A stretch of 64,000 bases of DNA from Bacteroidales bacterium (GTDB lineage Bacteria > Bacteroidota > Bacteroidia > Bacteroidales > Muribaculaceae). A model generated the notes under the pieces. It was given only the letters and a program-made list of their open reading frames with translations. It did no database searches and was not told where the DNA came from. Below, piece by piece: positions 7 to 5,783 of the stretch; within the stretch, counting starts at the first letter, position 1; each line of letters starts with the position of its first letter. Location: NCBI GenBank assembly GCA_030536615.1, contig JAUNPQ010000003.1:6484-70483 (forward strand), in the 5' to 3' direction. The position numbers and the translations under genes are program-made.

Positions 7-14
7 TACCTTTG
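7..14 (+). promoter_or_regulatory. Bacteroidetes sigma-A -7 promoter element (TACCTTTG) for the met leader/operon
   Basis: Exact match to TAnnTTTG, 20 nt upstream of the leader ATG; the -33 element would fall outside the window. Confidence 0.75.
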
Positions 15-33
15 CCCCCATATAAGACAACCA

Positions 34-135
34 ATGACCGTTTTCCACAACACATATTCAGTCATGACAAGCACTGACATTGCAAACAACATGTCAATGT
101 CCATGATGATGTGCAACCGCGGGAACCGGCTGTGA
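34..135 (+). CDS. Met-rich leader peptide, 33 aa: MTVFHNTYSVMTSTDIANNMSMSMMMCNRGNRL
   Basis: Hand translation, ATG 34 to TGA 133-135; 7 Met codons, five of them in codons 20-26; lies between the promoter and terminator upstream of metY. Confidence 0.8.
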   Translation: MTVFHNTYSVMTSTDIANNMSMSMMMCNRGNRL

Positions 136-205
136 GTGCTTCACATACATACACAACATACATAAGACCGGTTCCCTGATACCACAGTGGAGCCGGTCTT
201 TTTTT
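121..205 (+). promoter_or_regulatory. Transcription attenuator: antiterminator (121-129 with 168-176) versus intrinsic terminator (164-175 with 189-200, then U-tract)
   Basis: GGGAACCGG/CCGGTTCCC is a perfect 9-bp stem; AAGACCGGTTCC/GGAGCCGGTCTT is a 12-bp stem with one G-U and a T run at 199-205; the two stems share 168-175. Confidence 0.8.
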
Positions 206-238
206 ATAAAGTATCAGAAATAAAAATATTTATAGACA

Positions 239-1537
239 ATGAATCTGAAAGAACTCCAATTTGAGACACGGCAGATACATGCCGGCCTGACACGCGATGA
301 CTCAACCTGTTCACGTGGCATAGCCATTCATCCCACCGCCGCCTATAGGTTCAGCACCTGCGAATATGCGGCCAATCTGTTTGATCTAAGCGAGCCCGGA
401 AACATCTACAGTCGCTTGCAGAATCCCACCACTTCAGCCTATGAGGAACGTGTCGCCGCCCTTTACAAAGGTGTGGGTGCGCTTGCCACCTCGTCCGGGA
501 TGTCCGCCATCCTGACCGCTATCACATGCCTGGCATCAGCAGGCCAGAACATTGTTGCCTCACCTCTGCTTTACGGGGGAACATACAATCTGTTCCGACA
601 CACATTGTCACGCCTCGGTATAGAAGTACGCATAGCCACATCTACCGCGCCTGATGATTTCGCAACACTCATTGATGACAAAACACGTGCGGTGTTTGCC
701 GAGAGCATGGGCAATCCTACCTGCGAAGTCCCTGACCTGCAAGCTCTGGCTGCGATTGCCGCGGAAGCAGGCGTTCCTTTCATCGTTGACAATACATTCG
801 GGGCATGCGGGTATCTATGCAATCCTTTTGAGTGGGGAGCAGACATCATTGTCGACTCAGCGACAAAATGGATCAACGGACATGGCACGGCGATGGGGGG
901 CATAATCGTTGACAGTGGAAATTTCAACTGGGGCAACGGCCGCTTTCCCAATATTGACGGGCCATCGGAAGGATATCATGGACTGAATCTCTACAAAACT
1001 TTCGGTAATGCCGCATTCATAGTAAAATGCCGTGTGGACGGCCTGCGTGATCTTGGCAGCTGTCCGTCTCCTTTTGACAGCTATCTGATGCTTCTGGGAT
1101 TGGAAACACTGTCTCTTAGAGTGAGACACCAGGTTGAGGCCACACGCCGGCTCGCCGAATATCTGCGCAACAGCAAGGCTGTAAAAAAAGTAAGCTATGT
1201 CGGGTTTCCCGACCATCCGTCGCATGACAACGCCGCCAGATATTTCCGCTTCGGAGCTTCAGGCGTACTCAATGCCGAACTAATCGGAGATGTGGACACC
1301 ACCGCACGTTTTGTCAATTCTCTTGAACTTGCAGCTCACATGACCATGATAGGCGATTCCATCACCGTTGTCACTCATCCGGCCTCAACCACTCATAAAC
1401 AACTCTCAGCCGATGATCTGAAGAAAGCAGGAGTCACTCCTACCCTGCTGCGTATCTCCCCCGGGCTTGAAGATGTTGAGGATATCATTGCAGACTTTGA
1501 ACGGGCCTTTGCCAAAACTTTAGATGGTCGTGTTTAA
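239..1537 (+). CDS. metY: O-acetylhomoserine sulfhydrylase (aminocarboxypropyltransferase), PLP-dependent
   Basis: Cys/Met metabolism PLP fold: YSRLQNPT, SSGMSA, DSATKWINGHG (PLP lysine), LLRISPGLED. Confidence 0.9.
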   Translation: MNLKELQFETRQIHAGLTRDDSTCSRGIAIHPTAAYRFSTCEYAANLFDLSEPGNIYSRLQNPTTSAYEERVAALYKGVGALATSSGMSAILTAITCLASAGQNIVASPLLYGGTYNLFRHTLSRLGIEVRIATSTAPDDFATLIDDKTRAVFAESMGNPTCEVPDLQALAAIAAEAGVPFIVDNTFGACGYLCNPFEWGADIIVDSATKWINGHGTAMGGIIVDSGNFNWGNGRFPNIDGPSEGYHGLNLYKTFGNAAFIVKCRVDGLRDLGSCPSPFDSYLMLLGLETLSLRVRHQVEATRRLAEYLRNSKAVKKVSYVGFPDHPSHDNAARYFRFGASGVLNAELIGDVDTTARFVNSLELAAHMTMIGDSITVVTHPASTTHKQLSADDLKKAGVTPTLLRISPGLEDVEDIIADFERAFAKTLDGRV

Positions 1538-1548
1538 TAACAGATGTT

Positions 1549-2568
1549 ATGACTAAATTCTATCATCATGACAAGCCTTTCTGTCTGGAACTTGGAGGCA
1601 TCCTGCCCGAGTTGACAATAGCGTATCACACCTACGGCACTCCGGATGCGGACGCAGGCAATGTCATATGGGTTTGCCATGCCCTTACTGCCAACAGCGA
1701 TGTGGCCGATTGGTGGCCACATACTGTTGAGAAAGGAGCGTTTCTGGATCCGGAGCGTTTCTTCGTGGTCTGTGCCAACATTCTGGGGTCACACTATGGC
1801 ACAACAGGTCCACTCACCCCTGATCCTGTCACAGGCCGGCCTCTCTACAATGATTTTCCGGCACTAACAATCGCCGATATGGCACGTGCCCACTCCCTAT
1901 TGGCCGATGCTCTTGGAATAAAACACATAAACACCCTGGTAGGAAGTTCGGTAGGTGGCTTTCAGGCTCTGGAATGGGCCGTTCAGGAGCCAGGACGTTT
2001 CAGCCGTCTCATTCTCATTGCCACTGATGCCAAAGCCTCACCCTGGACAATCGCCATTGATGAGACACAGCGCATGGCCATAAAAGCCGACGCCACATAC
2101 GGAGAGCCCCGCGATGATGCCGCCATGAACGGCCTTGCTGCCGCACGTGCCATCGGTATGCTGACTTACCGTGGTCCGGACGGCTACAACCGCACTCAGC
2201 AGGATGATGACTCAGCGCCACTGTCAGCGCCAAGACGCGGATGCACATACCAGCAGCATCAGGGCATGAAACTATGCCGCCGCTACAATGCATACTCATA
2301 CGTCAGAATTCTTGACGCCTTTGACACTCACGACATCGGACGCGGACGCGGAGGCGTGGAAGCCGCCATCAAAACCCTTACGATGCCGACAACAGTAATC
2401 GGGATATCATCAGACATAATTTTCACGCCGGCCGAGATGCGCCGGCTGGCATCATGGTTCCCTGATTCAACATATCACGAAATCAACTCAGACCTGGGAC
2501 ATGACGGTTTTCTGGTGGAACACCGTCAGCTCAACAAAATACTTTTGAACAATGAACAGCAAGACTGA
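1549..2568 (+). CDS. metX: Homoserine O-acetyltransferase (MetX family)
   Basis: WVCHALTANSD, GSSVGG nucleophile elbow, C-terminal GHDGFLVE; operon context. Confidence 0.9.
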   Translation: MTKFYHHDKPFCLELGGILPELTIAYHTYGTPDADAGNVIWVCHALTANSDVADWWPHTVEKGAFLDPERFFVVCANILGSHYGTTGPLTPDPVTGRPLYNDFPALTIADMARAHSLLADALGIKHINTLVGSSVGGFQALEWAVQEPGRFSRLILIATDAKASPWTIAIDETQRMAIKADATYGEPRDDAAMNGLAAARAIGMLTYRGPDGYNRTQQDDDSAPLSAPRRGCTYQQHQGMKLCRRYNAYSYVRILDAFDTHDIGRGRGGVEAAIKTLTMPTTVIGISSDIIFTPAEMRRLASWFPDSTYHEINSDLGHDGFLVEHRQLNKILLNNEQQD

Positions 2569-3772
2569 CATAAAAATTGGCCTTTTCGGATTCGGGACTG
2601 TAGGCCAGGGCGTATACAAAGTCCTCGGACAGACAAAGAATGCCCATGCGGAGATAAAACGGATATGCGTACGCAATATAACGCGGCCCAGAAAGACAGC
2701 CACACCCGCCGGACTTCTGACGGATAATGCTGCTGACATTTTCGATGATCCTGAAATAAACCTGATCGTTGAACTTGTGGATGACGCAGACGCTTCTTTC
2801 CGGATAGTTTCACAAGCCCTTTGCCGCGGCATTCCCGTTGTGTCAGGCAGTAAAGCCATGATAGCACGCCATCTGCCTGAATTGATAGAAATGCAGCACG
2901 CCCACAACACTGCGTTACTCTATGACGCATCCTCATGCGGCTCAATACCTGTAATCCGAAATCTTGAGGAGTACTATGACAATGATCTTCTCCTTGAAGT
3001 CAAAGGCATTCTGAACGGCTCATCCAACTACATTCTTTCACGCGTCTTTGATCATGGAGAGAACTACACCGATGCGCTGCAACACGCTCAGGAACTCGGA
3101 TTTGCCGAAAGTGACCCCACTTTTGACATAGAGGGTTATGACGCCCTTTTCAAACTGATCATAATAACAGTCCATGCTCTGGGTCAGTTTGTGCCTGCTG
3201 ACCGTGTCTTCACTGTAGGCATATCACACATCCGGGACTGCGACATACGCTATGCCCGTGAAAAAGGGCAGAAAATAAAACTTGTGGCACAGGTGGCAAA
3301 AGTGAGTGACAGATCATTCACAATGTTTGTCATGCCTGAGCTTGTGGAAAAATCCAAATACATTTATAGCGTTGATGATGAATATAACGGAGTGGTGATA
3401 CGCGGCGAATGTTATGACCGTCAGTTCATGTTCGGCAAGGGCGCAGGAGGACTACCAACTGCCTCGTCCATACTATCGGACATAATGGCCCGACGACATG
3501 ATTACAGGTATGAATACAAGAAAATGAAATATGTGGACCGGCCATCCTATACCACAGATGTTACCATCCGTGTATACATCCGCTATGACGAGACACCTGT
3601 CCCCACGCTCATTCCGTTTACAAAAGTCTATGAGCAACTGATCACTCCTAAAGACAAATATATCATCGGCGATGTTCAGCTCAGCGATCTCATTGCACGC
3701 CGCCGGCTGTTTGACTCACATGATGTGTTCATTGCAAATATCCCTGTTTTATACACAGACCGCGACAACTGA
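2552..3772 (+). CDS. hom: Homoserine dehydrogenase
   Basis: GLFGFGTVGQG Rossmann motif, GILNGSSNYIL, GFAESDPTFDIEGYD, GKGAGGLPTAS. Confidence 0.9.
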   Translation: MNSKTDIKIGLFGFGTVGQGVYKVLGQTKNAHAEIKRICVRNITRPRKTATPAGLLTDNAADIFDDPEINLIVELVDDADASFRIVSQALCRGIPVVSGSKAMIARHLPELIEMQHAHNTALLYDASSCGSIPVIRNLEEYYDNDLLLEVKGILNGSSNYILSRVFDHGENYTDALQHAQELGFAESDPTFDIEGYDALFKLIIITVHALGQFVPADRVFTVGISHIRDCDIRYAREKGQKIKLVAQVAKVSDRSFTMFVMPELVEKSKYIYSVDDEYNGVVIRGECYDRQFMFGKGAGGLPTASSILSDIMARRHDYRYEYKKMKYVDRPSYTTDVTIRVYIRYDETPVPTLIPFTKVYEQLITPKDKYIIGDVQLSDLIARRRLFDSHDVFIANIPVLYTDRDN

Positions 3773-3776
3773 CTTC

Positions 3777-5783
3777 TCAGAAGCCAAGCGCAAACGGTGT
3801 CTCCGAGATATCACGATATGGTTTTCCGGCAATCCGCAGTTCACGTCCAAACCGCTTTCTGAGGCGCCGGTCAAGACTCGCCGCCAGCAGAACAGTATCT
3901 GCGGAAACGCGATCTGCGGCATGGAGCACATCGCCGGCAAACCCCTTTCCGACAATCAGATAATTCACACCCGGAGCACTCAGAGACACTGTGTCCGTGT
4001 TCAGGATAGCAAAACTTCTGTCACCAACAGTCAGAAAGCGTCCCACACGGTTTATTGATCCGCATTCAAACTTATCCGGAGCTTCTGTCAGCTCCTGTTG
4101 TCCGCGACGTCCCAAATAATCCGCGTATAGCCGCGTGGCATACTGTGTTGCCTGCGGCTGTACGCCATCTGTAATGATAAAAGTTTTCTGCTTCTGGTGT
4201 ATGATTATATCTGTATACCCATGCCGCCGGGGGATATAGAGGGCATTCCCGTCATCCTCCGGTATATGAAATGCAAATGACACAATCACAAAGACAAGCA
4301 TCATTGCCCCGCTACACACCACAAGCCGCCGCTTGCGGAACGTTCCCCACCCCATGACAGCAACTGCAGCCAGATAAACAACCATCTGCCACCATTGAGG
4401 ATATATGTCTGTAATCGCCGCATATGGCAGCGAGGCGAAAAATGACACCGTACCGTCCAATGCCATATGCAGCCAGTCAAGAATACGTGCCAATATATCT
4501 ATATGCACCCCGCATGCCGCAATCACAGCCGCCACTGCTCCAAAGCCCACCAACAGAGGCACCATAACGCCGGCAACCACATTCACCGGCAGGAACCACA
4601 CCGGCAGTTCATGAAAATAAAACGCTGTGAGCATTGACGTTGCCGCCATTGCTATGACGGGCACAGTGACATAGCTCATTACAAGGCGCAGCCGGTGAGA
4701 CAGCGTAAGCGGACACAGCAGCGGATTGAGCCACAGTATGGCCAGCACAGCCGTAGCCGACAGTTGCAGTCCGGCCGAGAAAAGCCAGAAAGGATTTATG
4801 CACAGCCATATGAGCACAGAAACGACCAATGAATTATACGGCGATGGATGGCGACCAAGCATTTTAGAGGTCATGAATACAACAGCCATTACGGCTGCGC
4901 GCCCGACCGATGCCGAAAATCCAGTTGCAGCAGCATAGAGCAACACCGTTACAACCAACAGCGTATACGCCACATATCTACCCTTAGGGAGAGCATGCAA
5001 CCCCGTTAACAGCAGTGAGGCCAGAAATACAATCACACCCACATGCAATCCGCTGAGTGCAAGGATATGTGCAATGCCTGCCGTGCGAAACTCTTCTTTA
5101 GTTGAATCGTCAATATAATCATCATCACCGGCAACTGTGGCAATGAGGAAATCGGTTGTCGGGACATCACAGCCAATCCCGGCTATGGCATGCTCCATGG
5201 CCAATGATGCCTTGTGCCTGAACGCCTGCAACGCGGATGGTTTACTGCCCGTATATTTTATATTCTCTCCTTCCGCCCACAATAGTGCTGATACTCCGTT
5301 ATTCCTACACACTTCATACATATTCCGTTCATCAGGCAGATCAGTCTGCCTGTCAATGACATAAATCACACCTCGGCAACTCACTGCATCGCCGGGACGG
5401 AAATATTCATGCGGATGACTTATGTTCATCAGGAGCCGCAATGACACGGAATATCCGTCAATACTGTCCACATCCACATAGTAACGTGACAATTCCGGAT
5501 CACCGTACTGTTTGTCGACTATGGCGTTAACCGTGACCGTTCTGCCTGTATATGCGGTCGGGACAGATTCAGGCATTCTGGCGTTTGTCATGAAAATACC
5601 CACGCCCACAAAAACTGTCATTGCCGCCAGCCATCCTCGTCGCAGCATCCACAGAGCCATGCCCGCAAGTATGGCGGCAACGGCCCAGAGAGGTCCGGCA
5701 TCCACGCTAACTCTGAGCAGGATGCCCATCACCGTCCCTGCCAGCAATGGCAATGCCGGGACACGCGACAACGGATATTTCAT
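3777..5783 (-). CDS. comEC: ComEC/Rec2 family competence membrane protein
   Basis: GIAHILALSGLHVG, SVGRAAVM, SAGLQLS motifs; many transmembrane segments. Confidence 0.85.
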   Translation of the reverse strand: MKYPLSRVPALPLLAGTVMGILLRVSVDAGPLWAVAAILAGMALWMLRRGWLAAMTVFVGVGIFMTNARMPESVPTAYTGRTVTVNAIVDKQYGDPELSRYYVDVDSIDGYSVSLRLLMNISHPHEYFRPGDAVSCRGVIYVIDRQTDLPDERNMYEVCRNNGVSALLWAEGENIKYTGSKPSALQAFRHKASLAMEHAIAGIGCDVPTTDFLIATVAGDDDYIDDSTKEEFRTAGIAHILALSGLHVGVIVFLASLLLTGLHALPKGRYVAYTLLVVTVLLYAAATGFSASVGRAAVMAVVFMTSKMLGRHPSPYNSLVVSVLIWLCINPFWLFSAGLQLSATAVLAILWLNPLLCPLTLSHRLRLVMSYVTVPVIAMAATSMLTAFYFHELPVWFLPVNVVAGVMVPLLVGFGAVAAVIAACGVHIDILARILDWLHMALDGTVSFFASLPYAAITDIYPQWWQMVVYLAAVAVMGWGTFRKRRLVVCSGAMMLVFVIVSFAFHIPEDDGNALYIPRRHGYTDIIIHQKQKTFIITDGVQPQATQYATRLYADYLGRRGQQELTEAPDKFECGSINRVGRFLTVGDRSFAILNTDTVSLSAPGVNYLIVGKGFAGDVLHAADRVSADTVLLAASLDRRLRKRFGRELRIAGKPYRDISETPFALGF

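Follow-up and report, generated by a model that had tools for sequence, protein, structure and literature searches.

By what means does a member of the Muribaculaceae adjust the synthesis of methionine if no SAM riboswitch precedes the genes concerned? The question is raised by the leader of the metY-metX-hom operon at the beginning of a 64,000-nucleotide stretch of DNA from a Bacteroidales bacterium (contig JAUNPQ010000003.1, positions 6484-70483; genome of 2.33 Mb, 94% complete), the whole of which is called the window below. Control of methionine synthesis is usually ascribed to MetJ/MetR, S-adenosylmethionine (SAM) riboswitches or T-boxes, and the usual lists of leader-peptide attenuators comprise those for Trp, His, Leu, Thr, Phe and Ile/Val and, in mycobacteria, for Cys. 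The leader in front of metY contains a short upstream open reading frame (uORF) rich in Met codons, an intrinsic terminator and an antiterminator and, judging from its sequence, is probably a ribosome-mediated (leader-peptide) attenuator of the trp type that senses charged elongator Met-tRNA. The kind of device is already known; what would be new is the amino-acid specificity, Met.

Architecture of the metY leader and the operon

The leader comprises the following elements:

7-14, plus strand: Bacteroidota-type -7 promoter box TACCTTTG, fitting the consensus TAnnTTTG (start site predicted)
34-135, plus strand: leader uORF MTVFHNTYSVMTSTDIANNMSMSMMMCNRGNRL of 33 codons, ATG at 34 and TGA at 133-135, with 7 Met
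91-111, plus strand: predicted sensor, codons 20-26, five of them Met (ATG TCA ATG TCC ATG ATG ATG)
112-114, plus strand: Cys codon directly 3' of the Met run
121-129, plus strand: region 2, antiterminator 5' strand GGGAACCGG, within the last uORF codons, the stop following 3 nt on
164-178, plus strand: region 3, terminator 5' arm, of which 168-176 is common to the antiterminator
185-200, plus strand: region 4, terminator 3' arm
199-205, plus strand: U-tract T7 of the intrinsic terminator, the first two bases closing the stem

The uORF is located between the -7 box, whose consensus is that of Bacteroides promoters, and metY, which starts at position 239; the uORF body has no unusual structure (z -0.2, fold versus shuffles). 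Region 2 is the exact reverse complement of CCGGTTCCC (168-176), with 9 of 9 pairs, and AAGACCGGTTCC (164-175) forms a helix with GGAGCCGGTCTT (189-200) that includes one G.U. By RNAfold the terminator is longer and comprises 15 pairs, 164-178 with 185-200, interrupted by one bulge. The free energy is -24.8 kcal/mol (z -7.3) for the terminator and -21.6 kcal/mol (z -3.3) for the antiterminator hairpin 112-180, and in neither case was any of 200 dinucleotide shuffles as good. Region 3 is used by both structures, which makes them mutually exclusive. The spacer in the antiterminator loop (141-166) is a CA/AT-rich low-complexity run, CACATACATACACAACATACATAAG. The consensus terminator scan missed the leader hairpin because its loop and bulge lie outside the simple pattern of that scan. 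A long-range pairing of 38-46 with 121-129 in the minimum free energy fold was dropped, being not conserved by eye in relatives.

The earlier note on this DNA had described the promoter box at 7-14, a 33-amino acid uORF at 34-135 with 7 Met, five of them in 91-111 and followed by Cys, the perfect 9-bp pairing of 121-129 with 168-176, a terminator formed by 164-175 and 189-200 with a T-tract to 205, and a spacer of low structure. All of these are present as described, the terminator stem being longer by RNAfold and the spacers of relatives being likewise unstructured. The note had also seen neither a SAM riboswitch nor a T-box, in agreement with the Rfam comparison. No match to SAM or S-adenosylhomocysteine riboswitches (including SAM-I, RF00162) or to the T-box (RF00230) was obtained either in positions 1-400 at E<=10 or in the whole window; positions 1-400 gave chance-level matches alone, the best being Thr_leader at 16.5 bits (cut-off 55), and at the gathering score nothing relevant was detected across the whole window, no family reaching the threshold. 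A sequence-only nhmmer profile of SAM-I had one weak match in the genome (E 0.42), which was rejected as lying within a coding region.

In the proposed mechanism, transcription would start a few nucleotides after the -7 box, and a ribosome would translate the uORF, beginning at ATG 34 or possibly at the inner in-frame ATG 64 or 91. With Met-tRNA(Met) plentiful, the ribosome would reach the stop codon at 133-135 and cover region 2, so that region 3 would pair with region 4 and RNA polymerase would terminate at T7, at about position 205, 34 nt before metY. When charged elongator Met-tRNA is scarce, the ribosome would stall with one of the clustered AUG codons (91-111) in its A site and leave region 2 free; region 2 would pair with region 3 once the latter is made (-21.6 kcal/mol), the terminator would be blocked, and metY-metX-hom would be transcribed, the predicted outcome being Met-responsive read-through. 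The Cys codon next to the Met run may contribute a minor cysteine input, but a stall there is an unlikely main signal because the ribosome would begin to cover region 2.

The genes downstream of the leader yield homocysteine/methionine precursors and are arranged as follows:

239-1537, plus strand: metY, O-acetylhomoserine sulfhydrylase (homocysteine synthase); TIGR01326, 553 bits (cut-off 495)
1549-2568, plus strand: metX, homoserine O-acetyltransferase, a family-level assignment; TIGR01392, 321 bits, and NF001209, 293 bits, both below the equivalog cut-offs
2552-3772, plus strand: hom, homoserine dehydrogenase; NF004976, 306 bits (cut-off 205)
3777-5783, minus strand: ComEC-like gene, the next gene after the operon

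Because hom overlaps metX by 17 nt and the ComEC-like gene is convergent with hom, metY-metX-hom represents the whole operon. On the other side, a gene for a GDSL/SGNH lipase-like protein ends 79 nt before the window start, and the leader terminator is not merely the end of this gene, since the -7 box sits between it and the uORF. When the whole genome was scanned in all six frames for short ORFs that have a Met cluster close to the C-terminus and a terminator behind it, the window site and one weak match (-9.9 kcal/mol) were returned, and a second Met leader elsewhere in the genome was found in neither of two scans.

Conservation, covariation and geometry among related loci

A MetY search over 121 genomes of the same family yielded 16 orthologous loci with 68-100% identity. 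The closest named relative of the window's MetY is encoded in a metagenome-assembled genome (MAG) of Muribaculaceae (76% identity), and it is from this match that the family was taken to be probably Muribaculaceae. In a further 70 genomes with matches, the sole MetY is a paralog of 40-45% identity. Directly 5' of metY, 14 of the orthologous loci, representing six genera, have a Met-rich uORF, so the Met codons, whose conservation the earlier note had made a test of its interpretation, are kept in most of these loci. A hairpin with a T-tract, together with a complementary segment in the 3' part of the uORF, is present in 12 of the 14 Met-rich leaders. The peptides, complete or as C-terminal parts (..), are as follows:

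L003: MTYVNMNMMIMRSRRSRV
L007: MSMMMVTCMRNRRSRV
L005: ..ENMMMSMMMCCRASRE
L006: ..NDMMMEMMCMCRL
L008: ..MEAMMMGMMMRCRRSRG
L009: ..VMGMMMMCNRPNRM
L010: ..GMEMMAMDMCMMCSTSCR
L011: ..FSMMMGMMCSRRSRV
L012: ..VMSMGMMMYMRRSGSRM
L013: MMNNMMNMMCMRSRRRRM
L004: ..YRMPMRKMFAPGVGR
L014 and L016: ..MMQRSMSMSMRMCR

The length of the leader peptide (16-42 amino acids), its N-terminal part, and the upstream neighbours and flanks differ among the loci. An ORF that starts at the Met cluster suffices, as evidenced by the short leaders of L003, L007 and L013. In the last 20 codons of 12 leaders, 73 ATG triplets are in the uORF frame, one is in frame +1 and none in frame +2. The positions separating the Mets are freely variable (S, G, N, E, D, A), and the Met frame has no stop interruptions. 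Since Met has a single codon, synonymous changes cannot be used to show translation of the uORF. Of the 12 same-family leaders with a terminator, 9 have a Cys codon in the run of Mets or adjoining it, as does the Muribaculaceae MAG locus L061; L003, L004 and L012 are devoid of Cys. Ten leader peptides compared with Pfam and NCBIfam at E<=10 matched no family.

The base pairing of both helices is conserved. In an alignment of 11 leaders (A1), extending from the Met cluster to the T-tract, the antiterminator helix (columns 43-51/101-109) has 83.8% of cells paired and five pairs changed on both sides, versus 26-50% for slid controls, and the terminator helix (columns 97-108/122-133) has 78.8% of cells paired and six pairs changed on both sides. 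An example of a double-sided change is GCCGG/CCGGC versus GTCGG/CCGAC. RNAalifold recovers the terminator from A1 unaided. Independently of the alignment, the last 33 nt around each uORF stop were paired with the leader's own terminator arm and with the arms of the other ten genomes, giving means of -17.3 and -13.3 kcal/mol, respectively; none of 20,000 permutations reached the observed mean (p<5e-5). Since the sampled genomes are related and non-independent, the shuffle-based values make significance appear too high; this affects the cognate test and the slid controls less. The covariation of both helices and the advantage of cognate over non-cognate pairing indicate that regions 2, 3 and 4 co-evolve, as the attenuator model requires. 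The spacers of the relatives are A/T-rich and unconserved, except for a short TTC-R-C-R-T motif right after the stop codon.

The spacing of the elements is conserved as well. The last Met codon of the cluster ends 8-11 nt 5' of region 2 in 12 of 12 leaders, and the distance from the end of region 2 to the end of the stop codon is 1-5 nt in 10 of 12. In toeprint data, a bacterial ribosome extends about 12 nt downstream, counted from the first base of the codon in its A site. A ribosome halted anywhere in the cluster of five AUGs in the window leader thus has its edge at or before position 121 and leaves region 2 free, while a ribosome at the stop codon buries 121-129. The earlier note had put forward the layout of trp/his/thr attenuators, had argued that a stalled ribosome would free 121-129 and one at the stop codon would cover it, and had called for a search for covarying stems in relatives; the spacing agrees with this geometry and is kept in the relatives, both helices covary, and the uORF, Met cluster, terminator and antiterminator that such a layout requires at the sequence level are found and conserved.

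A TAnnTTT[G/A] box is located 2-75 nt 5' of the uORF ATG in 12 of the 15 leaders checked, and no -7 box separates the terminator from metY. The -7 box of the window is flanked by a 7-bp inverted repeat, GGCAAAG...CTTTGCC (GGCAAAGCGGCTTTTTTATTACCTTTGCC; L001 1488-1516, that is, from 13 nt before the window start to window position 16), which may act as an operator for a protein or as a weak terminator for the upstream gene, or may have arisen by chance.

No Met leader was found at the inspected loci of the MetY paralog (L018-L031). These are often adjacent to a divergent gene for an Lrp/AsnC regulator (PF01037, PF13404), as in L020, where the regulator occupies 61-564 on the minus strand and the metY paralog 717-2003. 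The two MetY types appear to be under protein-based (paralog) and RNA-based (ortholog) control, respectively.

Small uORFs ending in the nonamer ATGCGAATG (Met-Arg(CGA)-Met) precede metY in L014 and L016 (about 150 nt upstream), L062, L063, L046 and L054, and uORFs of this type occur in several genera and in MAGs labelled Alistipes. Their stop codon overlaps a small hairpin, GTGCC-GTTA-GGCAC, and they have no clear intrinsic terminator. This leader looks like a type distinct from that of the window.

Objections and rival explanations

Several observations weigh against a Met-sensing attenuator. Once the RNA contains all four regions, stability somewhat favours the terminator over the antiterminator, and the switch must therefore be kinetic. 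No significant 1:2 hairpin, which would serve for pausing or as an anti-antiterminator, was found, segment 86-150 being no more stable than its shuffles (z +1.1); a candidate 1:2 pairing, ATGYG/CRCAT, of the last Met codon with the segment after the stop is 83.6% paired in the alignment, but shuffles and a +2 slide give equal values. Initiation on the uORF itself needs Met-tRNA(fMet), so that severe starvation hits both start and elongation. The sequence preceding ATG 34 is A-rich to a moderate degree only, and translation may in fact begin at ATG 91. The conservation of AUG is inseparable from conservation at the RNA level, and the case is made by the frame, the stop placement and the variable intervening codons. 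Two of the 16 orthologous loci, L015 and L017 (metY disrupted), have no leader, and in L014 and L016 the Met-rich peptide is present with no clear intrinsic terminator found. In L017 (about 1046-2313), a frameshift or stop divides metY into two tblastn segments with one TGA, and a short distance upstream lies the end of another gene; this metY is probably a decaying copy. Because a 1:2 hairpin is unsupported, an untranslated leader would probably default to read-through rather than to super-attenuation; a ribosome-free leader that reads through would resolve the seeming paradox of Met-tRNA(fMet) in initiation.

The explanation that keeps translation as the reader and changes what is read concerns a different or broader signal: cysteine or general sulfur supply, slow Arg codons (CGA/CGG) beside region 2, the overall capacity for translation, or arrest of the nascent peptide under the influence of a metabolite. 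The frequent Cys codon in or beside the Met run, found in 9 of the 12 same-family leaders with a terminator, the recurrence of CGA and CGG among the last codons, and the mixed Met/Cys composition of distant metY leaders, such as MCMTVMCMMCCMPSCMC and FFMPMCMCCCG, could be accounted for in this way. However, there are 5-10 Met and 0-3 Cys per leader, and the three leaders named above are Cys-free; a stall at the Cys codon puts the ribosome 3-6 nt closer, where it starts to cover region 2; the Arg codons belong to region 2 and are hence explained by RNA pairing; and arrest induced by a ligand at high Met or SAM would have the wrong regulatory sign for a biosynthetic operon. We consider a signal of this kind unlikely. 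The same holds, with still less probability, for a genuine terminator/antiterminator switch that is set by an undescribed SAM or Met riboswitch or by an RNA-binding protein, the uORF being incidental. Here the single codon of Met means that the conserved AUGs might be an RNA motif, and other families of the order place the ligand-binding SAM-I at the same position, but the window leader has no Rfam match, and the leaders share almost no sequence beyond the uORF 3' end and the terminator, with a variable, unstructured spacer that offers no room for an aptamer. The 73:1:0 distribution of ATG over the frames, uninterrupted by stops, the stop codon fixed beside region 2 and the free variation of the codons between the Mets also argue for a translated frame.

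That the product of the uORF is itself a small functional peptide rich in Met, one that binds metal for instance, with its own terminator and with no regulatory meaning in its position before metY, is very unlikely. Its composition is conserved, and Met-rich motifs bind Cu(I) in some proteins; against this stand the unconserved length and sequence beyond the Met cluster, the lack of a Pfam or NCBIfam match, the covariation of the C-terminal codons with the terminator arm, which points to a constraint on RNA pairing, and the leader always travelling with metY though its upstream neighbours differ. Short ORFs and hairpins are common, and a random small ORF beside the ordinary terminator of the upstream gene might look similar, but this explanation has a negligible probability and is already contradicted by the comparative data: the lipase-like gene ends well before the window with a promoter box between it and the uORF, the arrangement recurs with covariation in 12 to 14 related genomes, and the site is the sole one of its kind in the genome.

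Known regulatory systems and leaders in other lineages

As a proposed attenuator reading Met-tRNA charging, the window leader resembles the classical attenuators of E. coli and Salmonella (trpL, hisL, leuL, thrL, pheL, ilvL/ivbL) in having a short uORF rich in codons for the end product, an intrinsic terminator before the first structural gene, an antiterminator that uses the terminator 5' arm, and a stop codon so positioned that the antiterminator strand is masked when a ribosome completes the uORF. It differs from them in that the sensing codons would be AUG (Met), in that no 1:2 pause or anti-antiterminator hairpin is supported, and in having no sequence similarity, as the Rfam score for Thr_leader indicates. 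In contrast to the hosts of the classical attenuators, the bacterium of the window is a member of the Bacteroidota, and its mRNAs have no initiation led by a Shine-Dalgarno sequence. A precedent for leader-peptide attenuation in this phylum is the Bacteroid-trp leader, a motif with Trp codons before trp genes of Bacteroidota, reportedly described by Weinberg et al. in 2010; it differs from the window leader in its codons and its genes.

The SAM-I riboswitch (S-box, RF00162) is found in the same position and before the same genes and likewise uses premature termination to provide feedback from the methionine/SAM pool, but it binds SAM directly by a conserved aptamer, whereas the window leader has no such aptamer and its signal would be tRNA charging. 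The met leader of Staphylococcus aureus is a methionine T-box (PMC3771891). Such a T-box also reports Met-tRNA charging rather than SAM and controls methionine biosynthesis genes by antitermination; however, it is a structured RNA that binds uncharged tRNA with no need for translation, and in the window leader the ribosome would be the reader. The closest experimentally studied analogue for sulfur amino acids is the set of polycysteine leaderless short ORFs of mycobacteria, which are cysteine-responsive attenuators (bioRxiv 10.1101/834739). Cys leader peptides have also been predicted in Actinobacteria, where an evident intrinsic terminator is absent and methionine operons showed no RNA element in their upstream regions (PMC1262725). 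The mycobacterial and actinobacterial leaders share with the window a uORF rich in codons for sulfur amino acids, sulfur genes downstream and the ribosome as sensor, but they sense Cys and are leaderless, and the window leader is Met-dominated with a canonical terminator/antiterminator pair. No description of a Met-codon leader attenuator was found in the full-text literature (including PMC7366714, PMC2965389, PMC1262725 and PMC5314783), most subscription journals lying outside the search, nor was there a family of such leaders in Rfam 15, Pfam or NCBIfam or a relevant entry in the supplement of the B. thetaiotaomicron transcriptome paper.

In the other families of the order, 300 genomes were sampled and the 29 best metY loci inspected. 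A SAM-I riboswitch is located 5' of metY in 14 of the 29 by Rfam, with the nhmmer profile in agreement, and the site before metY is therefore a usual place of feedback control of the methionine pathway. Positive controls for SAM-I at other loci scored 56-87 bits, and Rfam detected no SAM-I in the same-family orthologous metY loci. A Met leader, ..FMMMGMMCSMMMSC, with no SAM-I is present at L040, which belongs to a different family. Met/Cys-rich uORFs also precede metY in Carboxylicivirga and in MAGs of Cryomorphaceae, Balneola, Terriglobia and Elusimicrobia. The Elusimicrobia, Terriglobia and Balneola loci contain a terminator and an antiterminator pairing that looks plausible by inspection or in a duplex fold; at the Carboxylicivirga locus and the Cryomorphaceae MAG locus, none was detected.

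In L045 (1182-1500), L058 (1152-1500) and L077 (271-700), a SAM-I aptamer (56-75 bits by Rfam) is followed by a Met-rich uORF, namely MHMLPMSMPRPKLR, ..FIMPMLPMSMPWPEFR and ..FTMPMMPMSMRSTKLR, respectively. The order is reversed in the Balneola MAG locus L079 (299-600), where a Met/Cys leader with its own terminator precedes the SAM-I aptamer. It seems fairly likely that control of metY by Met (or Met/Cys) leader attenuation is widespread and so far undescribed, occurring in scattered lineages as an alternative to SAM riboswitches and Met T-boxes, that it replaced SAM-I in the family of the window, sister families having kept the riboswitch, and that it operates in tandem with SAM-I in these four loci. 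Were this so, cells with tandem sensors would read both the SAM pool and Met-tRNA charging, and one locus in one bacterial order would present a natural exchange of sensing systems, SAM-I for a Met leader. A Met-sensing leader would also mean that the ribosome can report Met-tRNA charging although Met also starts the leader peptide; it would explain the regulation of methionine synthesis in abundant gut Bacteroidales, probably Muribaculaceae, that have no SAM riboswitch at the operon, and would supply genetic tools for Bacteroidota with a compact part that responds to Met.

About 200 nt separate the SAM-I aptamer from metY in L033, L034/L050, L035/L038, L046, L053, L054 and L057. This gap often contains an ORF of 20-40 codons that starts near the riboswitch terminator (MKK..FLF..) and ends in a short Met/Cys/Arg motif, such as ..SMCMR*, ..MPRMR*, ..MDMRGMRM* or ..SMRMRPCAQ*. 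Such an ORF may represent a second, translation-read stage of the expression platform.

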